A DNA stretch of 64,000 bases, taken from positions 1 through 64,000 of IMG/VR virus record IMGVR_UViG_3300012662_000001; one strand, written 5' to 3'. Positions 8,468 through 51,186 of this stretch are shown piece by piece (positions within the stretch are counted from its first letter, which is position 1; each line of letters opens with the position of its first letter). The notes under the pieces are model-generated. The model saw only the letters and a list, made by a program, of their open reading frames with translations. It ran no database searches and was not told where the DNA came from. Position numbers and translations under genes: made by a program. Source of the stretch: a virus.

Positions 8468-9493
8468 ATGAAACAACCTTTAGCGATAATTAGCACCGAT
8501 TGGCACATTAAGGCTGACAACAAGGAATCCATTTTGAACATTGCGAAGCAGGAGATTCAGTTGGCTCAAAATCGTGGTGTGGACACGATTATATGGCTTG
8601 GAGATATGTTTGACAGCAGAACAAGTCAGAGCCAGGAACTTCTCACTCTTATGGATAGCATCCTGAATCTGTACTATCTGGCAGGACTGACCATACACTG
8701 CATTCCTGGGAATCACGACAAGACGGACTATGGCGATAATAGGAGTTTCCTGACGGTGTTCAAGTATCATCCTAACTTTCATCTTCACGAGACGCCTGAT
8801 ATGGTGGACTTTGGTGTTGTGAAGTTCTGGTTTATGCCGTTCTATAGGCAGGATGCCTATCTGGAAAGATTTCAGATGTGTATGCCACTTGGCAGGTGTG
8901 TTTTGTTCAGTCACACGGCTATCCAAGGTTCAATTAATAACGACGGCAGCAAGGTGGAGTCACCTATTAATGCTTCACTGTTTGAGGGCTTTGAAAAGGT
9001 CTTTCTTGGACACTATCATAATAGGCAGCAGCCAGCGAGGAACATTTTTCACTTACCGAGTGTTCAACAGAACAACTTTGGAGAGGATGAGGATAAGGGT
9101 TTTACCGTTTTGTATGATGATTTGTCATTTGAATCCGTAAGGTCGGTTTTTAAGCCGTACAGAGAAATTGTGGTTGATGCACGGACGGTTACATCAGAAG
9201 AGCTTGCGGAACTTTCTAAATCGTCCGTTGAAGGGGTGAATTTGCGGCTTACGTTCACAGGAGATCAACAGGCTGTGAAGAAGATTGATCGCAAGAAGTT
9301 TTCAGCGGTTGGTATCAGTGTTCAGGTCAAGTATGATGACATTGACGTTGAGGATGCTGATGAGCCGCACGGCATTACGGTTCTGGACGGTTCAAGCATT
9401 GGCGAGCGGTTCGAGAACTTCTGCAAGGAAAAGGGTTATGACTATGTAAAGGGATATAAACTATTAAAGGAAATAATGGGATGGCAGGAATAG
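8468..9493 (+). CDS. sbcD: SbcD/Mre11-family nuclease (calcineurin-like phosphoesterase)
   Basis: ISTDWH, GDMFD, GNHDK and GHYH motifs in the canonical order. ATG at 8468 chosen because the upstream TTG lies inside the terminator. Confidence 0.8.
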   Translation: MKQPLAIISTDWHIKADNKESILNIAKQEIQLAQNRGVDTIIWLGDMFDSRTSQSQELLTLMDSILNLYYLAGLTIHCIPGNHDKTDYGDNRSFLTVFKYHPNFHLHETPDMVDFGVVKFWFMPFYRQDAYLERFQMCMPLGRCVLFSHTAIQGSINNDGSKVESPINASLFEGFEKVFLGHYHNRQQPARNIFHLPSVQQNNFGEDEDKGFTVLYDDLSFESVRSVFKPYREIVVDARTVTSEELAELSKSSVEGVNLRLTFTGDQQAVKKIDRKKFSAVGISVQVKYDDIDVEDADEPHGITVLDGSSIGERFENFCKEKGYDYVKGYKLLKEIMGWQE

Positions 9494-10443
9494 AGGAACT
9501 TGTGTCGACGTTACAGAAGAAGTTCGGCAAGGAGATTGTGGCTGGAAACACTTCACAGGAGGTCACGTTCATTTCGTCAGGCAGTATGGGTCTTGACTTG
9601 GCTCTGGGTGGTGGTTATCCTCTTGGCAGGATAGTGGAACTCAGAGGGTATGAATCCAGTGGAAAGACCACGCTTGCCCTGACGGCCTGTGCAAGCATAC
9701 AGAAACAGACAGGCAAGGCGATTGTCTATGTGGACAGAGAGAACGCCATTGATATGGACTATGTGGAGGCACTCGGAGTGGACGTGTCATCTCAGAAGTT
9801 CATTCTTACACAGGCTGGAACGGCTGAGGAGTGTCTGGAAATCATACGTGAATCAGCGAGGTCAACAGCGGTGGGCGGTATTGTTATGGATTCAGTGGCG
9901 GCTATGTTTCCACGATGCTATCTGGAAGCGGAGGTCGGGGATGCCAAGATGGGTGTTCTGGCTAGACTGATGTCAGCTTGGCTTCCTGGAATTGTGGGTG
10001 ATCTGAAGAGAAACAATATTATTGCACTGTTTATCAATCAGTATCGTGAAAAGATAGGTGTGATGTACGGTTCACCAAAGACTACTCCAGGAGGAAAGAG
10101 CTTGGGCTTCTATGCAAGTCAGATTCTGGACATTGCCAAGTCAGGTGTTGTGGGTGATAAGGGTGAGGAATCAGCCATTCACGTCAAGGTGCGTGTGGAG
10201 AAGAACAAGGTCGCTCCACCGTTGCGCAAGGCGGAGTTTGACATTCGCTTCGGTGAGGGTGTGGATAGAGCGTCTGAGGTGCTTGGACTTGCGGTTGAGT
10301 ATGAGATTGTGGAGAAGAAAGGTGCATTCTTCCGCTACAACGGTAATCTCATCGGGCAGGGTTCAGAAAGGGCAAGGGCTTTCCTTGCTGATAATCTTGA
10401 GTTGATGCAGGAGATTGAAGCAAAGATAACGGAAAAGATTTAG
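9481..10443 (+). CDS. recA: RecA recombinase
   Basis: GSMGLDLALGGGYPLGRIVELRGYESSGKTTLAL (Walker A), DSVAAM, ARLMS, FINQYREKIGVMYGSPKTTPGGKSLGFYAS. Confidence 0.9.
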   Translation: MAGIEELVSTLQKKFGKEIVAGNTSQEVTFISSGSMGLDLALGGGYPLGRIVELRGYESSGKTTLALTACASIQKQTGKAIVYVDRENAIDMDYVEALGVDVSSQKFILTQAGTAEECLEIIRESARSTAVGGIVMDSVAAMFPRCYLEAEVGDAKMGVLARLMSAWLPGIVGDLKRNNIIALFINQYREKIGVMYGSPKTTPGGKSLGFYASQILDIAKSGVVGDKGEESAIHVKVRVEKNKVAPPLRKAEFDIRFGEGVDRASEVLGLAVEYEIVEKKGAFFRYNGNLIGQGSERARAFLADNLELMQEIEAKITEKI

Positions 10444-10447
10444 ACTT

Positions 10448-12442
10448 ATGAGACTGGAAACATTAAGGCTGAAGAACTTTCTTTCCTTTAGGGAACTGAA
10501 TCATACGTTTAGGAACGGTGCGATACTTATACAGGGGCGTAATCTCACAGAGGACAGCAAGGAGACGAACGGTGCTGGAAAGTCCACTATGGAAGCCGGA
10601 ATCTCCTATGCGTTGATGGCCACACCACTTCGCAAACAGACACTTGATAGAGATCTGATAAGATGGGGTGAGGATGAAGCTGAGATTGAACTGACGGTGT
10701 TCTGTCCAGTTCGAGGGCAGCGACTTCGAATATTCAGGAAGATTCGTGTAAAGGGTTCAGCGACGTTGGAACTGTATCTGAATGAGCAGCCTGTACAGTT
10801 TGCTTCCGTGCTGGAGGGGAACAGATACATTCTGGATTGGATAGCGATAACCCCTGAGGACTTGAAGTCCTTCTATATTCTAAACAAGGAGAACTACAAG
10901 TCCTTTCTGAGTGCTTCCAACACTGACAAGCTCGCTCTCATCAATCGTTTTATGAGGGCAGAGCGTCTGGAAACGGCTGATGACGTCATAAAGGAGCAGA
11001 GTGTTCTCTACATTGAGAAACGTGATGCAGCCCAGAAAAAGGTCTTTTCCGTGGAGGGTGAATTAAACGCCTATAAGAGCCAGTTGAACTATGAGCAGTC
11101 TCGTAATCTTGATGAGGAACTGGAACAGCAGGTACAGGCAATTAGTGAACGAATAGATGAGTATAGACTGAAGATTCAAGCGTGTGAAAATGATAACAGA
11201 CAGATGGAGGAATCCAGAGGTGGGGTTGAATCAGAGGTTCTTAGTGCGAAGGAACACCTAAATATAGTGAAGCAGTCTCTTGAAGCGATGATTGCTGACA
11301 GCACTCTTGAGCAGCGAAAAGAATCCATTAGACAGGAACGTCAGGGTCTTGATAGTGCCGTGGTGGAAGCACGGAATTTTCGTAGTGAGGAACATCGACA
11401 ACTTGATGAGACGAATAGAAAATTGACTGAACTGAACAAGGTGCTTGCAGGAGTGATCACGTGTCCACACTGTCACCATAGATTTTTATTGAATGATACG
11501 GAATGTTCCGTTGCTGAACTTGAGAATGAAAGGGCAGGAGTGACTACTGACATAGATGTTCATAATAAGACAATTGATGAAATCAATGCCGTGCTTGATG
11601 AACTTGCTGACAACCTTTCCACCTATGATGGCGAGGAAAAAGAAATTGTTAATGCTATGAATAGACGTGATGCTGAGATTGCGACATTGCGTAAACAGAT
11701 TGCTAATGCGGAGCGTGATATCTGTGGCAAGGAGATTATATTAAGTCAGTGTAAAGAGAACGTCAAACGTAATAACAACACTATTGAGAATCTGAACAAG
11801 GATATTCAGCAGGAGGAGAAAAGAATTACCGTGCTGATGGAAGATGGTATTCAAACAAAGGTTGAGGAATATAAGGGGTTGATAACCTTGACAGAAAAGA
11901 AGTTGGAGCGTGCTCAGAAGGAACTTGAGAAGGCCGAAACCGAACTTGGTGAGCTTCAGCAGTGGGGGCAGCGATTCAAGGATTTCAGAATGTCCTTGGC
12001 CTGTGAACAGTTGAAGACGATTCAGGATGTGGCCAATCTATCACTGGAAAGACAGAAGTCCGAGCTTCGTGTGTCCATTGATGGTTTCAAGGTGAACGCC
12101 AAGGGTCAGATCAAGAGTGAGATTACTGTTCTGGTCATCAACGGTGAGGGCGAATACAAGAGTTTTTGGTTATATAGCGGTGGTGAACGTGCCAGAGTGG
12201 AGGTGGCAATGATACAGGCGTTTCAGGAGATGCTCAACGCCACCAATCCCTATGGAGGTCTGGACTTTCTGATGATAGACGAGGTACTTGAGGGGACGGA
12301 TCCTCTTGGCTTGAGCCTACTTATTGAATCTTTGAAGGACGTGGAAAATCCAGTTTATATCATTAGTCACGTGATGAATATCAAGGCTGGTGTTCCAACG
12401 TTGACGATTACCAAGGAGAACGGTATAAGCAGACTTGAATGA
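10448..12442 (+). CDS. sbcC: SbcC/Rad50-family ATPase
   Basis: N-terminal NGAGKST Walker A, long central coiled coil with a CPHC hook-like motif, C-terminal YSGGERARV signature and LMIDEV Walker B. Confidence 0.8.
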   Translation: MRLETLRLKNFLSFRELNHTFRNGAILIQGRNLTEDSKETNGAGKSTMEAGISYALMATPLRKQTLDRDLIRWGEDEAEIELTVFCPVRGQRLRIFRKIRVKGSATLELYLNEQPVQFASVLEGNRYILDWIAITPEDLKSFYILNKENYKSFLSASNTDKLALINRFMRAERLETADDVIKEQSVLYIEKRDAAQKKVFSVEGELNAYKSQLNYEQSRNLDEELEQQVQAISERIDEYRLKIQACENDNRQMEESRGGVESEVLSAKEHLNIVKQSLEAMIADSTLEQRKESIRQERQGLDSAVVEARNFRSEEHRQLDETNRKLTELNKVLAGVITCPHCHHRFLLNDTECSVAELENERAGVTTDIDVHNKTIDEINAVLDELADNLSTYDGEEKEIVNAMNRRDAEIATLRKQIANAERDICGKEIILSQCKENVKRNNNTIENLNKDIQQEEKRITVLMEDGIQTKVEEYKGLITLTEKKLERAQKELEKAETELGELQQWGQRFKDFRMSLACEQLKTIQDVANLSLERQKSELRVSIDGFKVNAKGQIKSEITVLVINGEGEYKSFWLYSGGERARVEVAMIQAFQEMLNATNPYGGLDFLMIDEVLEGTDPLGLSLLIESLKDVENPVYIISHVMNIKAGVPTLTITKENGISRLE

Positions 12443-16137: not shown

Positions 16138-18047
16138 AACTAAGAAATGAAATCCTCCGTCTAAATTCCCTGTATAGGCAGGGCAAGCCGGAGGTTAGTG
16201 ATGTTGAATATGACGCACTCGTGGAACAGTTGAAAGCGATGTCTCCTGATGATGACTTCTTTAGGTCAGGCGTTGCTGAAAAGGCGACTGACAGAATGCA
16301 GAAACTTCCTCTTCCTATGTTCTCTCTGGAGAAAATAAAGACGTTTAAGGAGTTTTTTGTGTGGGTCACGAGAATGGTCAAGGTTGGGTGTGAAAATCTT
16401 GTTATAACGCCTAAATATGACGGAATAAGTCTTCTTGTCAGTGAACTGTCACAGGCGGCCTGGACGAGGGGTGACGGTGTGCAGGGTCAACGTAGTGACG
16501 CACATTTTGCACGAATGAAAAATGGTGAGGACAGAGAACCTGTGTTTGAGTACACTTGGGGTGAGGCAATATGTTCCAGAGACGACTTTGAAAAGGTCAA
16601 GGGTGAATATAAGAATGCTCGCAATATGGTTGCAGGGCTGTTCAACTCCCCTATGGGAGCCAATACGGAGCAGATAGGAGCTGTGACATTTGTGAGGTAT
16701 GGCCTTGATTCTGATGAGAACAAGTCTGTGCAGCTTACTTATATGGAGAAACAGTATCTGTATGTTACTCCATTCAAGATGATTAAAGCAAAGGACATTC
16801 TATCCTATGATGAGAGTAGTATTCTGGATATGTTGAACACACTTTATAGGTTATGGAAACAGACCTACCAGATAGACGGTTTGGTTATTGAAGTGGATGA
16901 GAGCGGTGTTCGCAAGACACTGGGACGCAAGCCAAACGGAAATCCTGACTATGCCGTTGCGTTCAAGCGTGAGGAGTGGCTTCAATCCTACACCACAGTG
17001 GTGGAGAGGGTTGAATGGAATGTTAGCAAGGACGGTTGTCTATGTCCAGTGATATGTGTAAGGCCTGTGGAGATGGAGAGTGCCACCGTGTCCAGAGTGA
17101 CAGGTTATAATGCTCAATATATTCTGGAGAACAATATAGCGAGCGGTTCCACGATAGACATCATTCGCAGCGGTGACGTTATTCCAAAGCATATCAGAAC
17201 ACTTGGTTATTTGGAAAAGACCTGTTTACAGGAATTCCCTACCGTGTGTCCGTGTTGTGGCAAGCCTATTCAGTGGGACTCCACTCACACCGAGCTCGTG
17301 TGTGTGAATGAGAATTGTAGGCAGCAGGTCATTTCTCGTATGGTGTATTTCTTTAGGACGATGGGCTGTGAGGGCTTTGATGAGCCTATTGTGCGTCGCC
17401 TATATGACGCAGGAATGGACAGTGTCCAGGTTGCTGTGGCAAACAAGTCCACCGTATTTATGTACATACTTGGAGAGAATAAAGGTCTGGCGGTGTACAA
17501 TGAGATTCAGAGGAGAGTGCTTCACACGAAGAATTCCGTTGCACGACTTATGACAGCCTTTAATGTGTTTGGCGGTGCTCTTGCTGAGAAGACTGCACAG
17601 AACATCATAGACGGCAGTGAAGCGGTTCAGTATCTACTGGACGTGGGTGAGCCGATTGATGATAATGACATTCTGGCGGTGGTTCGTGAGGAGTTATACT
17701 CCATCTTTGGAGTGGGTGAGGTTACGGCTGACACGTTTATTGCAGGTATGGACAGGTTCCTGAGGATGAAGTATATGTATCCTCACTATGTCTACAGACC
17801 GCAGAGGGTGATTGCTGATGACTGTATGCACGTCTGTATGACAGGCTTTCGGAGCAGGGAACTGGAGGAGGAACTTGTAAGGCAGGGACACGAGGTTCTG
17901 AGCGGTGTCACGGCCAAGTGTACGGTTCTTGTAGTGGCTGATCTGAACTCGACAAGCAGCAAGATGCAGAAAGCTCAGAAGATGGGGATACGTATTGTGG
18001 ATAGAAAGACATTTGAAAATGAAATATACGGCAAGGAGAATAAATAG
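16125..18047 (+). CDS. ligA: NAD-dependent DNA ligase
   Basis: N-terminal SDVEYDALVEQL, adenylation motif TPKYDGISL (KxDG), zinc finger CPCCG...CVNENC, C-terminal BRCT-like segment. Confidence 0.85.
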   Translation: MSCVELRNEILRLNSLYRQGKPEVSDVEYDALVEQLKAMSPDDDFFRSGVAEKATDRMQKLPLPMFSLEKIKTFKEFFVWVTRMVKVGCENLVITPKYDGISLLVSELSQAAWTRGDGVQGQRSDAHFARMKNGEDREPVFEYTWGEAICSRDDFEKVKGEYKNARNMVAGLFNSPMGANTEQIGAVTFVRYGLDSDENKSVQLTYMEKQYLYVTPFKMIKAKDILSYDESSILDMLNTLYRLWKQTYQIDGLVIEVDESGVRKTLGRKPNGNPDYAVAFKREEWLQSYTTVVERVEWNVSKDGCLCPVICVRPVEMESATVSRVTGYNAQYILENNIASGSTIDIIRSGDVIPKHIRTLGYLEKTCLQEFPTVCPCCGKPIQWDSTHTELVCVNENCRQQVISRMVYFFRTMGCEGFDEPIVRRLYDAGMDSVQVAVANKSTVFMYILGENKGLAVYNEIQRRVLHTKNSVARLMTAFNVFGGALAEKTAQNIIDGSEAVQYLLDVGEPIDDNDILAVVREELYSIFGVGEVTADTFIAGMDRFLRMKYMYPHYVYRPQRVIADDCMHVCMTGFRSRELEEELVRQGHEVLSGVTAKCTVLVVADLNSTSSKMQKAQKMGIRIVDRKTFENEIYGKENK

Positions 18048-19711
18048 TGAGGTACTTCTATCGTGATAGTGCTTGGTGGCACATTGGGTTCAGTTATGAT
18101 CCGGAGTTGGTGAAGGAAGTAAAATCCTTTGCCAATTCTGGGTATAATCCCGAGTTAAAGGAGTGGTATGTGCCTGTTCATATAACTACATCGGCAGCGG
18201 TGCAGAAGTGGCTTGCAGACCATAATTTTCGGGAGGAGAGAGTCTATACACCGTCACGTAGAGTGGTGGAATATCAAGAGCCGCCGGAGGTGATAACATC
18301 TGATGACGTGCTTGTGGCCTGTGAAGAGGTCGGTCTGAAGCGCACACCACGTTATTATCAGGCGGAGGGTGTTGCCTATATGATTAATCACGGCAACTGC
18401 ATAAACGGTGATGATTGCGGCCTTGGCAAGACAGGGCAGTCCATTGTCACCGTGGAACTGATGGATGTATTTCCTACACTTGTTATTTGTCCAGCGTCCG
18501 TTAAGTATAACTGGAAGAAGGAGTGGCAGCGATGGAATCCAGCCAGAACGATGGGTATAGTGGAATCCGGAAGGAAGTATGATGAATCCGTTTGGGATAG
18601 TGACGTGGTGGTGGTAAATTTTGATATACTTGGTGAGCGGAGTACGGACAAGCCAAAGGTGAAGTACAAAGAACTTCTGAAGAAGTATTGGGGTTCGTGC
18701 ATAATTGATGAGATACACTTTTTGAAGTCAGAAAAGGCGATGCGTACACGAATGACGAAGAAGATAACGAAGCATATCGCTCACATTTGGGGTCTTACTG
18801 GAACGCTGACGCAGAATCGTCCTCTGGAACTTGTGCAGCCGTATCAGATACTTCGTAGGTTCACTGAAATCTTTGGTGACACTCTCGCATTCAAGTTTAG
18901 GTATTGCGACGCCAAGAAAACGATGTTCGGCTTTGATGCGAGTGGTTTTAGCAATCTGGAGGAACTCCACGAGCTGTTGCGAATGGCTGGATATGTTCGT
19001 AGACAGAAGAGAGACGTGCTCACGGAGCTTCCACCTGTCATAGAGCAGACCGTGGATGTTCCTATAAGCAATGTAAGGGAGTATCATCACGCAGAGGATG
19101 ACTTGTTGAATTACCTTGAAACAATAGACGTGGAAAAGGCAAGTTCAGCGGCTAATGCTCCTCATCTTGTTATGCTGAACACGCTTCGCACGTTAAGCAT
19201 TGTCGGGAAGATGGCCTTTATCAAGTCCTATATTCAGGAGTGGCTGGATTCAAACGAGGACAGACAGCTTGCCGTCTTTGGGGTACATCGTGAGCCGCTT
19301 CAGGAACTTGCTGACCACTTCAAGGCTCCAGTCATACAGGGTGGTGTGTCCATAGAGAACAAGCAGAGAATCGTGGACGCCTTTGCCGCACGGAAGCACC
19401 GACTTCTATTTGCCAACATTCAGTCCGCTGGAACTGGAACGGACGGTCTGCAGACACACTGTTCAGATATGGTCTATATAGAATTGCCTGACCGCAGTAC
19501 TGACGTTGAGCAGACGAACGCCCGACTGGAGCGTATGGGTCAGAGGAGCACAATCACAGTTACCTATTTACTGTCTCCCGAGACAATTGACGTGGAAATG
19601 AAGGAAACCCTGGACAGCAAGAAGATGCTCACTGACATTGTGAACGCAGGACATAGCGAGAACGAGCTTATTGCTATGAAATTCTTTAGAAATCGTAGGA
19701 GAAATCCTTGA
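18047..19711 (+). CDS. SNF2-family helicase/ATPase
   Basis: YYQAEGV, DDCGLGKTGQSI (motif I), IIDEIHFLKS (motif II), LTGTLTQN, helicase-C part with QSAGTGTDGLQ. GTG start overlaps the ligA stop. Confidence 0.85.
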   Translation: MRYFYRDSAWWHIGFSYDPELVKEVKSFANSGYNPELKEWYVPVHITTSAAVQKWLADHNFREERVYTPSRRVVEYQEPPEVITSDDVLVACEEVGLKRTPRYYQAEGVAYMINHGNCINGDDCGLGKTGQSIVTVELMDVFPTLVICPASVKYNWKKEWQRWNPARTMGIVESGRKYDESVWDSDVVVVNFDILGERSTDKPKVKYKELLKKYWGSCIIDEIHFLKSEKAMRTRMTKKITKHIAHIWGLTGTLTQNRPLELVQPYQILRRFTEIFGDTLAFKFRYCDAKKTMFGFDASGFSNLEELHELLRMAGYVRRQKRDVLTELPPVIEQTVDVPISNVREYHHAEDDLLNYLETIDVEKASSAANAPHLVMLNTLRTLSIVGKMAFIKSYIQEWLDSNEDRQLAVFGVHREPLQELADHFKAPVIQGGVSIENKQRIVDAFAARKHRLLFANIQSAGTGTDGLQTHCSDMVYIELPDRSTDVEQTNARLERMGQRSTITVTYLLSPETIDVEMKETLDSKKMLTDIVNAGHSENELIAMKFFRNRRRNP

Positions 19712-19924: not shown

Positions 19925-20388
19925 ACATATACACGGACGGCAGCTGTAACGCACGAACCAAGGTGGGCGGCTATGGTGTGTATGTCAAGGAAGATGACAG
20001 TGAGGTTGTTGTTCATCAGGGCTACACGGATACCACGACGGCACGAATGGAGATGCGAGCCGTGCTTCACGCAGTACGCCTGACACCCTATGATTCTGTG
20101 GACGTCTATATCCATTCTGATTCTCAGTTCATTGTAAGGGCGTTCAAGGATGGGTGGCTGTCACGCTGGAGGACGGCAGGATTTGTTGGTGTGAAGAACG
20201 CCCCCATCTGGAAGACCATTGTGTTCGAGATGGCGAAACGTTCACAGGCTCATTTTCACATCAGGTGGCTTCACGGTCACCAGAAGGACATTCTGGATGA
20301 CACCATCTTTGGAAACACGGTGGCTGACGCACTGGCTGACTATAAGAATCAGGAATCATACATTAAGGACACCGATGACAGTATATGA
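19912..20388 (+). CDS. rnhA: ribonuclease HI
   Basis: IYTDGSC...GGYGVYV...TTARMEMRAVLHAV...IHSDSQF...GNTVADALA; RNase H D-E-D-D motif order. Confidence 0.85.
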   Translation: MRRIDIYTDGSCNARTKVGGYGVYVKEDDSEVVVHQGYTDTTTARMEMRAVLHAVRLTPYDSVDVYIHSDSQFIVRAFKDGWLSRWRTAGFVGVKNAPIWKTIVFEMAKRSQAHFHIRWLHGHQKDILDDTIFGNTVADALADYKNQESYIKDTDDSI

Positions 20389-21839
20389 CACCAGACAAGT
20401 ATCAACAGGCGGTTATAGATGAATATAGAAAGACAAACCGCAACATTTTTATAAGTGCGACGGCAGGATCAGGCAAGACGACCTGTTTGTTGGAGTTGGC
20501 CAAGAGGACATCACCGTTAAAATCCACTATGTTTTTAGCATTTAACAAGTCAATAGCGGAGGAACTTGGCAGGAAACTTCCTCCTACCGTAAAGGCTATG
20601 ACTCTTCACGGATGCGCTCTGGCGGCTCTTCGTAAGACGTTTGCCCTGAAGTTTATGGTCAAGGACAACAAGTATTTCAGTCTTGCAAGTGAGATTCTGG
20701 AATCGCATAAGGTGCATTTCAAGCGAATTCCGGGGCTTGCAGTGCGTATGTGCAGACTACACGACCTTATGCGATACAATCTTGTCAGTGATGGTGTGGA
20801 TGAGGTCTGTGCACTTGCTGAAAGGTATGGTGAAGACTGTGATGAGAAAGTGGCTGGATACACCTGTGAACTGCATTCAGCGGCAAAGCGAGCAGCTGAT
20901 ACGTTCTTTGCAGGTGGCGCACAGGGAACCATTCCTATGGACTTTACGGATATGCTTGTATGGGCGGTGAGGTATGTGCCTAAAACGGAGTTCAAGCAGT
21001 ATAGTGTGGTGATGTGTGATGAATGTCAGGATATTAGCACATTACAGTATGAATTGATAAAGAGATTAAAGACCCCCAAGGGGCGTCTTGTGGCCGTGGG
21101 TGATCCGAAGCAGTCCATCTATTCGTTTCAGGGTTCCAATCTGGATTCGCTTCACGCAATACAGAACTCTCCCAACACAGTGACGCTCCCTCTGTCCATC
21201 ACCTATCGCTGTGCCAAGGCCATTGTGAAGGAAGCTCAGAGGGTGTTTCCAGAGGGTATAGAAGCGGCTCCGACGGCTGTTGAGGGTATAGTCACGAGAG
21301 GACTACTTAATGAAGTAGTTGAGGGTGACTTCATCCTATGTCGTAATAATGCACCGTTGATAGATGCTTGGCTGAAGTTGGTTAAGATGGGTCGTAGATG
21401 CGTGATACTTGGCAAGGACTTTGGTGACGCTCTTATGGAGATTCTGGACGGTGCGGAGTGTGTGGATGACCTTGAGAAGCCGCTTGTGGATCTTCTGGAG
21501 CGACTGCACCGCAAGGGCATCGAGCGACCTGAACGAACGGAGGCATACGCCAATCTGGATGAAAAGGTGGGCATTCTATTGAACCTGTTTGACTTCTTTG
21601 GCAGTCTTGAAGCAGTGAGAGAAAGAATTTTTGATATTTTCGTGGAAAACACTGATGAGAAGCACGTTATTCTATCAACAATTCACAAATCTAAGGGGCT
21701 TGAAACGGATAGAGTGTTCTTCCTTGAGCCAGAGTTGATTCCAAGCAGGTTTGCGACGACGGAACTCGCTATGTATGCTGAGAGATGTCTTATGTTTGTG
21801 GCTATAACAAGAGCGAAGAAAGAATTGATTTACATATAG
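20385..21839 (+). CDS. UvrD/PcrA-like SF1 helicase (paralog 1)
   Basis: TAGSGKTT (Walker A), MCDECQD, VGDPKQSIYSFQG, TIHKSKGLE, VAITRAKKEL. Confidence 0.85.
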   Translation: MTPDKYQQAVIDEYRKTNRNIFISATAGSGKTTCLLELAKRTSPLKSTMFLAFNKSIAEELGRKLPPTVKAMTLHGCALAALRKTFALKFMVKDNKYFSLASEILESHKVHFKRIPGLAVRMCRLHDLMRYNLVSDGVDEVCALAERYGEDCDEKVAGYTCELHSAAKRAADTFFAGGAQGTIPMDFTDMLVWAVRYVPKTEFKQYSVVMCDECQDISTLQYELIKRLKTPKGRLVAVGDPKQSIYSFQGSNLDSLHAIQNSPNTVTLPLSITYRCAKAIVKEAQRVFPEGIEAAPTAVEGIVTRGLLNEVVEGDFILCRNNAPLIDAWLKLVKMGRRCVILGKDFGDALMEILDGAECVDDLEKPLVDLLERLHRKGIERPERTEAYANLDEKVGILLNLFDFFGSLEAVRERIFDIFVENTDEKHVILSTIHKSKGLETDRVFFLEPELIPSRFATTELAMYAERCLMFVAITRAKKELIYI

Positions 21840-24657: not shown

Positions 24658-26097
24658 ATGGCGGATAGGAAACTGATACCGAAACGAGTGATAATGGAGC
24701 AGGACGTGGAACGCATTATGCGAACCGCTCCTGACTGGATTCTGGATGCGGCTGATGAGATTCACGATCTCTATGTGGCGTCGGAATGGGCAAAGGAGGA
24801 GCGTGACCTTTCTCCAAAGAGATACTTTGACATCACCCTGAACGCAGGTACAGCCAAGGAAAAGGAACTTCACATTGACTTTCAGCAGACGGTGAATCCG
24901 TCATCTGTCATCAAGTCATCAGGCGGCACTCTGGAGGATATGCAGAAAGCCAACGGAGCACGTCTCGGCTATCTGGCTCTTGACCGTGCCTACAACAATG
25001 CCGTTCTTGCCTTGAACACGGCTATGGGGATACGCAGTCGCAAGCCGAGGAACATTGTGGATTATACAGGCACGATAATGGAGCTGTTCGGCAAGTTCTA
25101 CACCGTGGCTGACGTGCATAACGTTCTGAGCAAGGAATATCGCATAAAGGTTCCTGAGGATGAACTTCGCAAGTTCTATGTTGAGCATCGTGACCTGATA
25201 ACAAAGCGCAGAGCCGACTATGTGCTTAACAGCAAGGAATTTAGAATAGCCACCGAGACAGGCCGTCTGGAGGTGCTGAACAGGCTTCTCGTGGAGTTTG
25301 AGGTGAAGAACAAGGCCGCAGGAGGAAGTAATCTGGAGATATCCAATATGATCCTTCGCATCATTGAACAGGCACGCAAAGAGGTCAAGGGCAACGAGCT
25401 GAAGATGACCGTTGACGGCAGAATAGACGTGTCAGCCACGGTTCACGCAGAATCCAACGTAGTGGAGGTGATGAAGCATCTTTCCATCAACGCTCTCGTC
25501 ATCGGCCTTACGGCGGCCAAGGCAGGACTGAATCCAGCCGTGCTGATAGGGCAGCTTGCGAACAGTTGGTATAGCCAGTTCAACGGATTCAACGGCAATA
25601 TTATGGAGGGTAAGGACGTGCGGCTTCCTTCCGCCCTGATACGCTCCTATGACTGGGACGTAATCGCCAAGGAAAGCAAGGCCTTCATCGGGGAATTCAC
25701 GCCTATTACGGACGTTGTTGACGAGCAGGATGCTGTGGCTCGGGAACAGGGTGAAAGTCGTCGTGAGGAGCTTGTAAATCGTCTTAGAACTATAAAGAAT
25801 GCAAAGGATAGAGAACAGAAAAGAGCCAATCCCTACACTACGGACGGATTATCTACGGAATCCTCCGGAGGTCTGGTGGCAACCCCTGTCGAAGGAGGAA
25901 CAACGGAGCTGAAGCACGAGTTTGAAGTGGATTATGCCCTGAACGGAAATCAGAAACAGAAACACAATATTCGCATTCGTGGAAAGATACGTGAATCCAT
26001 TGATCGTCACGCAGCACAGAGGGAAGCCATAGTTGAGGAAAGGCGCAAGGCCAGAGCCGTGCGCAGAAAGGATGCCACTAAGCTCAAGAATGAATAG
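24658..26097 (+). CDS. hypothetical protein with basic C-terminus
   Basis: 479-codon ORF; no Walker or other diagnostic motif. Confidence 0.55.
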   Translation: MADRKLIPKRVIMEQDVERIMRTAPDWILDAADEIHDLYVASEWAKEERDLSPKRYFDITLNAGTAKEKELHIDFQQTVNPSSVIKSSGGTLEDMQKANGARLGYLALDRAYNNAVLALNTAMGIRSRKPRNIVDYTGTIMELFGKFYTVADVHNVLSKEYRIKVPEDELRKFYVEHRDLITKRRADYVLNSKEFRIATETGRLEVLNRLLVEFEVKNKAAGGSNLEISNMILRIIEQARKEVKGNELKMTVDGRIDVSATVHAESNVVEVMKHLSINALVIGLTAAKAGLNPAVLIGQLANSWYSQFNGFNGNIMEGKDVRLPSALIRSYDWDVIAKESKAFIGEFTPITDVVDEQDAVAREQGESRREELVNRLRTIKNAKDREQKRANPYTTDGLSTESSGGLVATPVEGGTTELKHEFEVDYALNGNQKQKHNIRIRGKIRESIDRHAAQREAIVEERRKARAVRRKDATKLKNE

Positions 26098-26118: not shown

Positions 26119-26505
26119 ATGAAGATAGTGTATAACAAGATAATTCCCTTTGAGGGGTATCTCTGCATCAACCTGTTTGGGATGCTCTTTGTGCGTGGCA
26201 CGAAGAAGGAGATGGAACACCGCATCACAATCAAGGTGCAGAATCACGAGCGAATACACACGGCACAGATGAGGGAAATGGGTTACATCTTCTTCTATCT
26301 ATGGTATTTTGTGGAGTACTGCATCATCAGGCTCTTTCATCAGAAGCAGGGGTGTGCCTATCGGGATGTGTCCTTTGAGGAGGAGGCCTATCTACACGAG
26401 AACGACTATCAGTATCTGCAGAACAGACGTCACTACACTTGGTTTAGGTATCTCAAGGTGAGAAGCAATCATCTGCACACTGGACGTGGATTCTGCCAGA
26501 AGTAG
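26119..26505 (+). CDS. hypothetical protein with HExxH motif
   Basis: NHERIHTAQ (H-E-x-x-H) followed by a hydrophobic stretch. Confidence 0.45.
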   Translation: MKIVYNKIIPFEGYLCINLFGMLFVRGTKKEMEHRITIKVQNHERIHTAQMREMGYIFFYLWYFVEYCIIRLFHQKQGCAYRDVSFEEEAYLHENDYQYLQNRRHYTWFRYLKVRSNHLHTGRGFCQK

Positions 26506-26575: not shown

Positions 26576-27658
26576 ATGGCAAAACCAGATTGGATAACAT
26601 TAAGCAAGTCCTCAGGGTCAGGAAATGACACCGTGACCGTGACTGCTGCAAAAAACACGAGCACTACCGCAAGGAGTGGCTCAATCACGGTCAAGTCCGG
26701 CTCTCTTTCAAAGGTGGTTACAATCAGTCAGGAGGGGCAGACTCAACAAAAAGGCAAAATTTATTTGAAATTTCCTTCAGGGGCGGCATTTCCAGCATCT
26801 TATGTTGAACAGGAATTAATTATAAGTAAAAGTGCGGCAATTGAAGGAACTGTATCTAACTTCGTATCAGGTGGAACAATAGAATCTATATCTGATGGAA
26901 TTCTTGTTATTGATGTTAATGGAATAGATATCAATGATTTTGTAGAACAACTTAATACTGGAGATGTAAGTCAAGCAAAAAAGATTTTTTTTGGAACAGG
27001 ATCTGAAACTGACTGGATCGGTTTATTAACTACAACAGATCAAGATTCAGAAGATAATTATGTTTCCCAGTACATTGCTAAAGTCTGGCAGTATGCCTTT
27101 GTTGATGGTTCTGATCAAGAAATAACCTGTTCTATTTTACGAACAATATCTTTTAATAATGTAAATTTGGGAACCATCAGTATTTCTGATGAAAATTGGA
27201 CTGATTATATGAATGAAGTGAATTCACTTATAATTACACCAATTGTTCACATATATGATCCGTCAACATCAAATGCAGAGGCTGCTGCAACAATTCGATC
27301 TAACCATTCTATAATTTTGCAGAGAACAACAACAACTTCTGGTCAATTAGTAATGAACGCTGATCTAATGATTGATTTTGAAGGGCAACTTTCAGATATT
27401 TCCATAGAAATTATGGATGCTGATACTGAAAATCTGTTTGAATCTTGCTTAATAAGCACAAATCCGCAAGAAATAAAATTGGTATCTTCCTTATATGATG
27501 GTACATACACATATTATGCTACAAATACAGATGATAATTCCCTTTATGTCTGGAATGACAATAATATGATAAATGTTCTTCCAATTTCTGTAGGTCTTAA
27601 TGCAATTAGTATTGATGCCAACCCTACTATTTCATCAGAAATACAACAGATTTATTGA
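26576..27658 (+). CDS. BACON-domain protein (probable tail fibre/receptor-binding or surface-decoration protein), currently expressed form (constant N-terminus plus cassette A)
   Basis: N-terminal WITLSKSSGSGNDTVTVTAAKNTSTTARSGSITVKSGSLSKVVTISQEGQ is a BACON repeat; the AT-rich C-terminal 305 codons lie inside the IR-bounded segment. Confidence 0.8.
   Translation: MAKPDWITLSKSSGSGNDTVTVTAAKNTSTTARSGSITVKSGSLSKVVTISQEGQTQQKGKIYLKFPSGAAFPASYVEQELIISKSAAIEGTVSNFVSGGTIESISDGILVIDVNGIDINDFVEQLNTGDVSQAKKIFFGTGSETDWIGLLTTTDQDSEDNYVSQYIAKVWQYAFVDGSDQEITCSILRTISFNNVNLGTISISDENWTDYMNEVNSLIITPIVHIYDPSTSNAEAAATIRSNHSIILQRTTTTSGQLVMNADLMIDFEGQLSDISIEIMDADTENLFESCLISTNPQEIKLVSSLYDGTYTYYATNTDDNSLYVWNDNNMINVLPISVGLNAISIDANPTISSEIQQIY
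26692..26739 (+). repeat. IR-L, 48-bp perfect inverted repeat inside the BACON gene
   Basis: CAAGTCCGGCTCTCTTTCAAAGGTGGTTACAATCAGTCAGGAGGGGCA; its exact reverse complement is at 28448-28495. Confidence 0.95.
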
Positions 27659-27667
27659 TAAAAATCA

Positions 27668-27695
27668 AAAGGGTGACCAAATAAGGCCACCCTTT
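27668..27695. terminator. bidirectional hairpin between the two convergent cassettes
   Basis: AAAGGGTG..CC-aaataa-GG..CACCCTTT. Confidence 0.6.
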
Positions 27696-27702
27696 AATTT
27701 AT

Positions 27703-28447
27703 TTACGGTTTAACAATGTAAATTGTTCCAATGGCTGAAAATTCTTCACCTTCAGTATTTATACCTGTAACAGTAAACTCGTAAGTTGAATCCGTTGTTG
27801 CTGCTGAACTTATTGAAATGAATAAGGTAAACCTTCCAGAATCAATTTCATTTCCTGAAGGTTTACCTTGAGGAGCGATGGTAATGTTGTCAGTATCAAC
27901 CTTGCTTTCATCTATTTGAATTGAATTTGGAATGATGTCAACGAAAAGGACAGCGACCTCGCCATTGGTTTCAGGTGCAAGCTCTATAGTTTCGGGAGAA
28001 AGCACGATTTCACTTGAAAGGGAACTTGTTTCCTTATAGATTTTAAGGGTGGCGGCCTCACTTACAACAACCTTACCATCCTCACCGCTTAATCCATCAA
28101 TATAAAAGGACAATGTTCCATAATAAGGATCAGAAGCACTTCCACTACCGAAATAAGTGCAATCAATCATCTTCTCAAAAAGATCAAAATCACTGATGCT
28201 AACCTGGAAGTTAACTGTCTTTGTGTGAGTTGCATCATTTGTTGATACAACGACTCCTGTGAGAGACAAGCCATAATTTATAATATCCTCTCCGAACACT
28301 TCCTCACCGTTTATCGTAAAAATTATTCCATTCAAAGACGTAAAGAGTCCGTCAAAATATTTAAGATCTACATTTTGAGAAACAGGGGCATAATTCTGCA
28401 TTGACGGAAAATTTATTTCAGATGGCCATTCAAGGGCGTTACTTGTT
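27703..28447 (-). other. silent alternative C-terminal cassette B for the BACON protein
   Basis: The minus-strand frame runs in frame through IR-R (KSGSLSKVVTISQEGQ then TSNALEWP...). There is no ATG before or within the repeat, and stops lie just upstream. The protein is distantly similar to cassette A (TYFGSGSASDPYYGTL versus IFFGTGSETDWIGLL). Confidence 0.75.
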
Positions 28448-28495
28448 TGCCCCTCCTGACTGATTGTAACCACCTTTGAAAGAGAGCCGGACTTG
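28448..28495 (-). repeat. IR-R, 48-bp perfect inverted repeat
   Basis: exact reverse complement of 26692-26739. Confidence 0.95.
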
Positions 28496-28508
28496 CAGTT
28501 AATTAAAT

Positions 28509-29684
28509 ATGGAAAAGAAATTTAGGTTTATAGACCTGTTCTGCGGAATAGGGGGGTTCCATCAGGCGTTGTCTGATCTGGGTGGTGAATGTGTCTTTGC
28601 AAGTGATATTGACAGGCACTGTCAGGATGTTTATGAAAGGAATTATGGACTGCGACCTGTTGGGGATATAACCAAGGTGGATGCGGCTGATATTCCGGAG
28701 TTTGATATTCTGTGTGGCGGATTTCCGTGTCAGGCCTTTTCCTGTGCGGGAAAGCAACTTGGATTTGATGACCCCACACGAGGAACGCTGTTCTTTGAGA
28801 TTATGAGAATAGTTCATCACCATCATCCAAAATATGTCTTTCTGGAAAACGTGCGTAATCTGTTGAATCACGACGACGGCAACACGTGGAGGGTGATTCA
28901 CGACTGTCTGGATGAGGCAGGATACAACGTGAATCCTCTTCCTATTGTCTTCAGTCCGCACTGGCTTGGCATTCCGCAGCATCGTGAAAGAGTGTTCATC
29001 ATTGCCGTCAGAGAGGATATCGGTACACCGCCTGACTTCACGTTTAGTGAACGTGCGTGGGAGATGGAGAATATCTTTCAGAGTGATGATGAGATTCAGG
29101 ACATTGAACGATACAGACTAAAGCCGGAGGTCGTGAACATTCTTGATGGGTGGAATGAGTTGATTCAGAACATTCACACGGACGTGGTGCCGTGCAAGAT
29201 ATGGGCGAAGTATCTCTGTGATCCTGAGGACGTGGTGTTTGATAAGGAGCCTTCTGATAGTCAGGTGAGAACCATTGAGCGCAATGTGATGCTCTATATG
29301 GAGAACAGAGACTTTATTGATGACTGGCTTATAAGGATGAACAGAAATCCTTTGTTTGGGACGTACTGGAATCGACTTGAATGGCAGGTGAAGGACAAGT
29401 CCGTGCGTGACATCTGGAAGTGCTATATGCAGAGACGTCAGACTGGAATTCGTGTCAGGGATTCCATCTGCTTTCCAACTCTTGTCGCTATGTCGGGACA
29501 GATTCCTATTGTCGGTTCAAGGAGACGATACCTGACACCGAGGGAGTGCGCCAGACTGCAGAGTTTTCCTGATTCATTCATAATAGATGACAATGTCAAG
29601 CAGGCCTACAAGCAGTTCGGGAACAGCGTGAACGTGGAATGTGTGAAGTTGTTCGCTATGATGATGCTTGATGTTATGAAGTAA
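28509..29684 (+). CDS. dcm: DNA (cytosine-5)-methyltransferase
   Basis: FIDLFCGIGGF (motif I), GGFPCQAFS (motif IV), ENV (VI), QHRERVF (VIII), QFGNSV (X). Confidence 0.9.
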   Translation: MEKKFRFIDLFCGIGGFHQALSDLGGECVFASDIDRHCQDVYERNYGLRPVGDITKVDAADIPEFDILCGGFPCQAFSCAGKQLGFDDPTRGTLFFEIMRIVHHHHPKYVFLENVRNLLNHDDGNTWRVIHDCLDEAGYNVNPLPIVFSPHWLGIPQHRERVFIIAVREDIGTPPDFTFSERAWEMENIFQSDDEIQDIERYRLKPEVVNILDGWNELIQNIHTDVVPCKIWAKYLCDPEDVVFDKEPSDSQVRTIERNVMLYMENRDFIDDWLIRMNRNPLFGTYWNRLEWQVKDKSVRDIWKCYMQRRQTGIRVRDSICFPTLVAMSGQIPIVGSRRRYLTPRECARLQSFPDSFIIDDNVKQAYKQFGNSVNVECVKLFAMMMLDVMK

Positions 29685-40233: not shown

Positions 40234-40266
40234 TCCTTGGATATTCCAGAAATATGACTACCTTTG
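40234..40266 (+). promoter_or_regulatory. promoter/operator cassette P8 (closest to consensus)
   Basis: TCCTTGGATATTCCAGAA, 19-nt spacer, TACCTTTG, then the TAATCATTAAATCAC leader. Confidence 0.6.
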
Positions 40267-41786: not shown

Positions 41787-41797
41787 TTTCCTGGATT

Positions 41798-41832
41798 GCT
41801 CCTTGGATATCCAAGGAGCAGCCTTATATTTG
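41798..41832 (+). promoter_or_regulatory. promoter/operator cassette P9 with a 24-bp perfect palindrome
   Basis: TGCTCCTTGGAT|ATCCAAGGAGCA (41798-41821), then TATATTTG (41825-41832). Confidence 0.6.
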
Positions 41833-51153: not shown

Positions 51154-51186
51154 CAAAGGTAGTCATCTTTCTTGGAAATCCAAGGA
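51154..51186 (-). promoter_or_regulatory. promoter/operator cassette P13 on the minus strand
   Basis: minus strand reads TCCTTGGATTTCCAAGAAA, 19 nt, then TACCTTTG. Confidence 0.55.

Follow-up and report, generated by a model that had tools for sequence, protein, structure and literature searches.

An invertible segment that would splice a BACON domain to alternative C-terminal cassettes in a clade of gut phages

Inversion of a DNA segment can provide one gene start with a choice of two endings. In the G segment of phage Mu, the C segment of P1, the P segment of e14 and the Min system of p15B, the fixed beginning of a gene is connected in frame with one or the other of two 3' cassettes that lie in opposite orientations. 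Here, we describe a locus of this design in positions 1 to 64,000 of the virus record IMGVR_UViG_3300012662_000001 from IMG/VR (this whole stretch of 64,000 nucleotides (nt) is referred to as the window). At 26,576 to 28,495, the gene of a BACON-domain protein runs into a segment that is bounded by an inverted repeat (Table 1). A first-pass annotation of the window had likened this locus to Mu G and P1 C. The likeness stands for the layout, as the segment measures 1.7 kb, the repeats are located in coding sequence, the silent cassette is start-less and the products differ distally, presumably in their binding part. It does not stand for membership of that family, as neither a Gin/Cin-type enzyme nor a gix-like site was found. 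Unlike in the Gin, Cin, Pin and Min systems, no adjoining serine invertase gene, within which those systems have their Fis-dependent enhancer, was found, the neighbours being a protease-like gene of 128 amino acids (aa) and a Dcm methylase gene, and the repeat contains no 26-bp dyad-symmetric gix/hix site around a 2-bp core. Unlike in Mu G and P1 C, the arms are perfect over 42–62 nt and evolve in concert, each cassette consists of one open reading frame (ORF) with no second gene of the U/U' type, and the product is a BACON-domain protein encoded among replication and early genes, not a recognised tail fibre. Inversion of G and C is mainly a process of the prophage state, whereas the phage described here is apparently virulent.

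Three other kinds of inversion are related to the locus in different ways. Shufflons, as in the C-terminal switching of pilV by Rci in R64, also combine a constant N-terminus with C-termini that are selected by inversion, and the repertoire of our phage clade likewise exceeds two cassette types. However, shufflons have several segments, many 19-bp sites per genome and a dedicated tyrosine recombinase, whereas the phage genomes have one repeat pair and two cassettes each, and no Rci-type tyrosine recombinase was found in them. The intragenic invertons of gut Bacteroidales (Chanin et al., bioRxiv 10.1101/2023.03.11.532203) share an ecosystem, and probably a host group, with the phage, and they too recode a protein by inversion within its coding sequence. 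These invertons are found on bacterial chromosomes, are mostly short and have been attributed to invertases, in contrast to a segment on a phage genome that swaps whole domains of ~250–300 aa and has homology-type arms. Homology-driven flip-flop isomerisation, known from the L and S segments of herpesviruses, plastid inverted repeats and the 30-kb isomers of a cyanophage (bioRxiv 10.64898/2026.02.14.705889), resembles the locus in its homogenised, identical repeats and in the apparent lack of a dedicated site-specific recombinase. Replication in those systems is rich in recombination, and general recombination genes are present, in silico, in the phage as well. Their repeats, which measure from hundreds up to thousands of bp, exceed that of the locus ten- to a hundredfold in length and splice no genes, whereas inversion at the ~50-bp in-frame repeat changes the protein that is made.

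The protein itself also has a precedent, as single, non-tandem BACON proteins that are encoded near replication genes rather than in the tail module have been described in gut phages (PMC6949934, de Jonge et al. 2019). That paper mentions neither inversion nor alternative C-terminal cassettes, and we found no description of the present switch in the literature that was searched. The gene-splicing design is thus a classical one, and what is new is a switch for which no invertase was found, a cassette pool that spans a clade, and a carrier that is probably a virulent gut phage.

Both orientations of the segment in public genomes

The repeat is exactly where the first-pass annotation had placed it, with 48 bp perfectly matched between 26692–26739 and 28448–28495. 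It is the longest inverted repeat of the window, the runner-up being 33 nt long and 88% identical, and a perfect pair of 48 nt would be expected about 3e-20 times by chance. The arms extend to 51 nt with one mismatch, a G at 26740 that faces an A in the opposite arm. This A is found on the right arm (IR-R) of the window and on both arms of the sister genomes L002, L030 and L061, so a recent single-nucleotide polymorphism (SNP) at the inner repeat edge explains why the repeat is perfect over 48 nt in the window and over 51 nt in its sisters. As had also been claimed, the left arm (IR-L) lies within the gene at 26576..27658, whose 360-aa product matches Pfam BACON (PF13004) over residues 3–53 (E = 7.8e-14; 51.9 bits against a gathering cut-off of 25). 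The last 16 codons of the 55-residue BACON domain thereby recur in inverted orientation 1.7 kb downstream, at the head of the second cassette. On the minus strand, IR-R encodes the same peptide and continues in frame for 246 codons, up to a stop at 27703–27705, which agrees with the annotation. Its description of this frame as start-less was right in that in-frame stops are found 8 and 10 codons before the repeat and no ATG lies in between, but there is an in-frame GTG inside the repeat, from which gene callers call a 256-aa ORF.

Inversion of 26740–28447 had been proposed to fuse the 55-aa N-terminus to cassette B, and exactly this fusion was found in public data. The predicted flipped product, used as a query against a collection of 5.8 billion protein clusters, retrieved 20 clusters of 302–314 aa at 98–100% coverage, all with a BACON N-terminus. 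This means that BACON followed by B is a real protein architecture in relatives. The exact 302-aa fusion was identified as P0059 by an exact-sequence look-up in a collection of 15 billion proteins. It shares a contig of 2,542 bp (L030; ERZ26858487 NODE_23006) with P0065, a 314-aa ORF that starts at the GTG of the repeat and covers cassette A in its silenced state. Both flanks of the locus are present on L030, which begins in the last part of the 128-aa gene on the upstream side and extends into the first part of the methylase gene. The contig matches the window flipped in silico at 2539 of its 2542 bases (three SNPs), compared to 1209 mismatches with the unflipped window. It is also 99.8% identical, with the segment inverted, to an unflipped contig of 106,955 bp from a sample with a neighbouring accession number.

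Two further cassette pairs were found in both orientations. In one, L066 (D expressed, B' silent) and L010 (B' expressed, D silent) have collinear flanks that are 99.7% and 99.2% identical, while the 1,845 nt that include the repeats match only when reverse-complemented, at 99.7%. In the other, L008, which equals L069 (C expressed, B' silent), is paired with L009 and L001 (B' expressed, C silent); here, the flanks are collinear and 88–95% identical, and the segment again matches only when reverse-complemented, at 93–94%. The inversions are precise and in frame in all pairs, and the breakpoints of all observed inversions lie inside the repeat (IR-L). The constant N-terminus is 81–100% identical among all relatives, regardless of the cassette downstream. 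Other relatives contain further combinations: B' is expressed and D silent in L067, and L005 expresses C, with a truncated A-type cassette (91% identical) in the silent slot and a perfect repeat of 62 nt. With A, B/B', C, D and a decayed E, the lineage has a minimum of four or five cassette types, which occur in various pairings.

The divergence within these pairs and the state of the silent cassettes both bear on how often the segment flips. Two of the three flipped pairs are 99.2–99.9% identical in aligned blocks, which means that flips outpace point divergence. The silent cassettes are open over 246–320 codons in 8 genomes. The ratio of non-synonymous to synonymous substitution rates (dN/dS) in comparisons of silent with silent copies is 0.29 for B', 0.38 for C and 0.35 for D, within the range of the expressed copies (0.26–0.82); the silent cassettes are intact and, judged by these values, under purifying selection. 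As a cassette that is never expressed would not stay conserved, the conservation of the silent copies argues for recurrent switching. In L007, which expresses D, the repeat has decayed to 78% and the silent cassette is fragmented, so that arm decay and silent-cassette decay go together. On the minus strand, the sequence upstream of IR-R is the methylase gene in the window and is unrelated in L005, L008, L009 and L010, and this lack of conservation leaves no conserved promoter or start context for the silent cassette. Its start-less frame stays fused to the repeat in every genome. Sequence comparison thus makes it very probable that the locus is a real and recurrent inversion switch.

Some points weigh against this conclusion. 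Each assembled contig has a single orientation, and the comparisons are between contigs rather than between the reads of one clonal population. The GTG inside IR-R also gives the "silent" cassette a slim chance of independent translation. In two samples, coverage of the switch contigs is roughly half that of the main contigs of the phage (7.2x versus 14.2x and 9.0x versus 16.5x). We did not accept this as a sign of a 50:50 mixture of orientations: the interior of the segment is common to both orientations and should have full coverage, so a mixture of strains fits better. Breaks in Logan contigs were likewise rejected as evidence of mixed orientations, as these contigs stop 30 nt into IR-L, which is expected for k = 31. 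A separate observation concerns L068 (ERZ1034925 NODE-24; 105,212 bp, 967x), a near-complete genome contig that breaks off exactly where its 53-nt left arm is complete, at locus position 4170. A graph with k = 55 would branch at this point if two continuations coexist, which is a hint that they do.

Table 1. Features of the switch locus and of the candidate recombination machinery in the window.
Feature	Position	Strand	Evidence or remarks
Constant 5' gene part (start codon, most of the BACON domain)	26576..26691	+	Pfam BACON; conserved N-terminus
IR-L, left arm	26692..26742	+	Codes for KSGSLSKVVTISQEGQ, with which the BACON domain ends
Invertible segment, 1,708 bp, with two convergent cassettes	26740..28447	.	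L030 equals the window with the segment reverse-complemented (2539/2542 bases)
Cassette A, currently expressed; ~305 C-terminal residues and stop	26743..27658	+	ORF of the 360-aa gene
Shared hairpin between the convergent cassettes	27668..27695	.	11-pair stem with 6 GC pairs; A-run upstream, T-run downstream
Cassette B, currently silent; 246 codons and stop, no start outside the repeat	27703..28444	-	Expressed as a fusion in L030 (P0059)
IR-R, right arm	28445..28495	-	Encodes the KSGSLSKVVTISQEGQ peptide in the frame of cassette B; preceded by stops at 8 and 10 codons
Candidate machinery: SbcD-like nuclease, UvsX/RecA-like recombinase and SbcC-like subunit, side by side	8468..12442	+	PHROGs 6.1e-44, 7.7e-64 and 5.4e-58

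Repeat evolution and the possible mechanism of inversion

To consider how the segment may invert, we compared the repeat arms within and between genomes. Within each of 7 genomes, the two arms are 100% identical over 42–62 nt. Between genomes, the arms differ at ~6 positions, most of the differences being synonymous, and whatever variant one arm has is shared by the other. On the outer side, the start of the identity shifts between genomes and is found at SITVKSG, KSG or SGS. On the inner side, its limit can differ between genomes with one and the same cassette pair: the arms of L001 are identical through GGGACAGACCCA, after which cassette C starts with EGQTHVAMK, whereas those of L009 are identical only up to AAGTCAAGA, and the start of cassette C is DASTVVAMK. 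These shifting limits look like conversion tracts of variable length. The arm shows no dyad symmetry (494 of 500 shuffles were as good or better), no hix/gix-like 26-bp site (the best match to the consensus had 10 of 20 specified positions wrong) and no Mpi motif.

No enzyme dedicated to the inversion was found. The first-pass annotation had seen no invertase in the window, and this holds when the search is extended to essentially the whole genome. Among the 68 window ORFs, none matched the Pfam families Resolvase or Phage_integrase; for the first half of these ORFs, this refers to the best 25 of 34 matching Pfam families, the others being weaker than 6e-6. There was no serine or tyrosine recombinase in the 10 kb on either side of the window in the same strain, and no recombinase family in the remaining terminase-to-tail stretch, which was read in a relative that is 85–95% identical. 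Searches by tblastn with Hin, Gin, XerD and FimB returned only noise. The absence is thus based on Pfam and tblastn, with part of the genome covered via a relative only. What the window does contain is an SbcD-like nuclease, a UvsX-like recombinase (Pfam RecA, 2.3e-78) and an SbcC-like subunit, which together form a T4-type recombination set.

Exchange between the inverted repeats would flip the 1.7-kb segment, by which the constant 55-residue N-terminus would be joined in frame to cassette A (~305 aa) or B (~247 aa), and one promoter-proximal gene start would serve both cassettes. The flipping may be carried out by the UvsX-like recombinase of the phage and the SbcCD-like nuclease during recombination-dependent replication; host RecA or template switching at the fork could be alternative agents. 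Of the mechanisms raised in the first-pass annotation, the involvement of a phage RecA looks best. An exchange driven by homology rather than by a site-specific invertase is suggested by arms that are identical within genomes and different between them, by the shifting limits of identity and by the lack of dyad symmetry, and we put our confidence in it at about even. The main argument against it is that arms of 48–62 bp are short for a RecA-type exchange. In addition, constraint at the protein level could partly explain the perfect arms, a new kind of phage recombinase may be present among the many unannotated ORFs, and Bacteroidales-type hosts carry many invertases that act in trans, the host genome being outside our data.

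The last two points correspond to alternatives in which a specific enzyme acts on the repeat. A serine or tyrosine invertase of the host could act in trans, in the manner of the Bacteroidales invertons, on a site that is contained in the repeat. Host invertases that act in trans are established in Bacteroides, and their involvement would agree with the precision of the exchange and with the failure to find a recombinase in the phage. However, the arm has neither the dyad symmetry nor the hix/gix-like site or Mpi motif that could mark such a site, and a fixed binding site neither needs nor predicts matched arm variants and shifting limits. A virulent phage would, moreover, have to rely on an enzyme of its host during a short lytic cycle. 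We therefore consider a host invertase unlikely, if clearly worth keeping in mind. It is more doubtful still that the phage encodes a recombinase that was missed by Pfam, PHROGs and BLAST. Many ORFs have no family match, including one of 479 aa at 24658–26097, just upstream of the locus. This ORF and the neighbouring 128-aa gene are, however, also present in the relatives L011, L004 and L076, which have no switch, and we noticed no gene whose distribution follows that of the switch. The arms' concerted evolution and their shifting limits also point to dependence on homology rather than on such an enzyme.

Other alternatives question the switch itself. The inversions could be rare accidents in a duplicated gene fragment, with no programmed switching and with the second cassette expressed from the GTG in the repeat. 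This would fit the single orientation per assembled contig and the 256-aa ORF that gene callers report. It does not fit the observation of three cassette pairs in both orientations, two of them between genomes that are 99.2–99.9% identical, or the lack of a conserved promoter or start upstream of a frame that is always fused to the repeat, or the decay of the silent cassette along with the arm; we regard such accidents as very improbable. Least of all do we expect the flipped contigs to be assembly artefacts, in which a segment bounded by inverted repeats was threaded either way. Inverted repeats longer than k make an assembly graph ambiguous, as the breaks in the Logan contigs (k = 31) illustrate. 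But at 42–62 nt the repeat is shorter than ordinary reads, and the 51–53-nt repeats of L030 and L068, which have SPAdes-type names, are below the usual top k of metaSPAdes, which is 55 by default, although the actual assembly settings may differ. L001 and L005 have MEGAHIT-style names (k119 and k141); if these numbers give the final k, it exceeds the repeat length and the orientation is supported by reads. The same result was obtained from several assemblies and collections, and in distant relatives, such as L004, a B-type fusion is the only form. We thus favour a recurrent inversion switch over both of these alternatives.

Cassettes and the possible role of the protein

The two cassettes of the window have a GC content of 0.30–0.40, compared to 0.45–0.53 in the flanks, which bears out an earlier remark on their AT-richness. 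By contrast, the distant kinship that had been claimed for cassettes A and B was not supported, as a profile–profile comparison with hhalign aligned only the BACON N-terminus that they share. Structure predictions also differed. The AlphaFold model of the cassette A form has a mean predicted local distance difference test score (pLDDT) of 55.7 and is confident only for residues ~56–190, which form an alpha/beta domain; Foldseek found no meaningful structural match for it in the PDB. Cassette B is modelled as two immunoglobulin (Ig)-like beta-sandwich domains with a mean pLDDT of 86.5. Its matches in the PDB are generic two-Ig-domain proteins (single-chain variable antibody fragments), with nothing specific to a function, and similar folds in BFVD include phage Ig-like, BIG2, tail-fibre and BACON proteins. 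The hairpin that the annotation had noted between the cassettes is present, with 11 pairs, and scores as a terminator. It is probably a two-way transcription terminator that acts in either orientation of the segment. A scan for sigma-70 promoters showed no enrichment, although such a scan is unsuited to Bacteroidales-type promoters.

The function of the switch protein may be reflected in the company of its BACON domain. The structural module encodes, immediately ahead of the tail sheath, two proteins (210 and ~750 aa) that begin with a BACON domain of the same kind, with 37–45% identity to the constant part in the switch protein. A BACON start in common with structural proteins, a raised dN/dS and the many cassette types suggest that the switch protein is displayed on the virion, where the constant BACON part would present swapped domains that bind variable glycans of the host or mucosa. 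We place the likelihood of this slightly below even. The dN/dS values of 0.3–0.8 are, in our judgement, high for phage genes. If the protein is displayed in this way, it may have a role in host range, in which the switch would hedge against the phase-variable surfaces of Bacteroidales. As to a tail fibre, there is no PHROG match and the gene is located outside the tail module, yet the Ig-like folds are of the kind found in tail fibres and the BACON N-terminus is shared. A virion role is a guess, and several results speak against it: the gene is surrounded by replication and early genes, neither cassette form has a match in PHROGs, and the model of cassette A is poor and lacks a structural match. 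The two structural BACON proteins begin at Met1 with MAKxxWLT... and are encoded at 17969–18601 and from 20030–20663 onward in L022, and at 3282–3911 and 4766–7021 in L071. In a third protein of the structural module (295 aa), BACON is matched weakly and at an internal position; used as a query toward the tail module, this protein gave no matches.

Taken as a whole, the explanation that the locus is a working gene-splicing inversion switch, driven by homology and producing a binding protein displayed on the virion, is one towards which we lean. The more far-reaching proposal is that a virulent phage uses its own UvsX and SbcCD on a ~50-bp repeat for programmed phase variation of a surface-binding protein, with cassettes traded across the clade. 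We regard this as possible rather than probable.

The phage, its relatives and the meaning of the switch

A near-identical contig of 106,510 bp indicates that the window represents 64 kb of a circularly permuted genome of ~106.5 kb. Its structural genes encode a portal, an SU10-like capsid protein, a tail sheath, a tail tube, baseplate J and an intein-containing terminase, and its large set of replication genes encodes DNA polymerase III alpha, which is split and also contains an intein, as well as helicases, a ligase and RNase H. GroEL, ferritin and an extracytoplasmic function (ECF) sigma factor are also encoded. We label it a myovirus-type phage of gut Bacteroidales. In a tblastn search with GroEL, the nearest isolates were phages of Bacteroides thetaiotaomicron (DAC19 and others) at 42%, which is only a weak hint of the host. 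No integrase was found in the phage genome, and no relative of the switch protein was found in bacterial genomes when one genome per species was scanned; a virulent lifestyle is likely. Among GenBank phage records, neither a megablast search with the 4.2-kb locus nor a tblastn search with the fusion protein gave a match, and the clade is not in the INPHARED collection.

Within this clade, the block that contains the BACON switch is accessory. The close relative L011 (IMG/VR contig 3300045988_142678) is without the whole block of BACON gene, switch and methylase (6465–6615 in L011 compared to 26576–29581 in the window), which shows that the module is dispensable. L004 contains a single BACON-B gene without a repeat. 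In the more distant L076 (3648–5684), two BACON-X genes (223 and 227 aa) are found on one strand with a 212-aa ORF between them and no inverted repeat, an arrangement that is plausible as the ancestral state of the switch. The Dcm methylase gene lies directly beside the switch (window 28509–29684), and a second gene for a Dcm-type C5 cytosine methylase is located within 35–64 kb. We considered the methylase as part of the switch system and rejected it: L005, L008, L009 and L010 lack the gene and in L001 it is broken up into three ORFs, while the switch is kept, which marks it as a variable accessory gene with no connection to the switch. The upstream 128-aa gene (26119–26505) has an HExxH motif (HERIH) and a PHROG protease match (1.3e-37), and it is present in switch-less relatives as well.

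Several other features of the genome were observed. Inteins are found in two essential genes (window 3138–6065; L019 1–672; L034 7878–9977): in DNA polymerase III alpha, an Intein_splicing domain is located between finger domains, and the large terminase contains a Hint domain and a LAGLIDADG homing endonuclease. A dUTPase is split into ORFs of 91 and 85 aa by an HNH_3 endonuclease gene (L019 3755–5052, ~5.4–6.7 kb upstream of the window start in the same strain); this is perhaps a mobile intron, or else the insertion of a free-standing homing endonuclease gene. Genes for HMUD2, HMUDK_hel and a thymidylate-synthase-like protein are clustered (L019/L020 5747–8631); this suggests hypermodification of thymidine in the phage DNA, of the 5-hydroxymethyl-deoxyuridine type, which could affect restriction and sequencing. 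Finally, the motif TCCTTGGATAT[T/C]C... recurs in both orientations, apparently between genes (window 40234–40266, 41789–41812 and 51154–51186). It may be a promoter or regulatory element of the phage, perhaps for its ECF sigma factor.

Promoter inversion at the genes of surface structures is a way in which gut Bacteroidales evade phages. The locus described here is a concrete and testable candidate for the side of a virulent gut phage in this contest, being a two-state switch of which both states are visible in public metagenomes and which, with four cassette types or more, is found across a clade of phages of ~100 kb. The junctions between repeat and cassettes can be used for orientation-specific polymerase chain reaction (PCR) and read-mapping assays on existing series of gut metagenomes. 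If our explanation is correct, the switch would be a means by which the phage responds to Bacteroidales hosts whose capsules and S-layers are phase-variable. The gene-splicing design of Mu and P1 would then run on a short coding repeat and general recombination, without a dedicated invertase, and similar switches would have been missed by searches that start from invertase genes.

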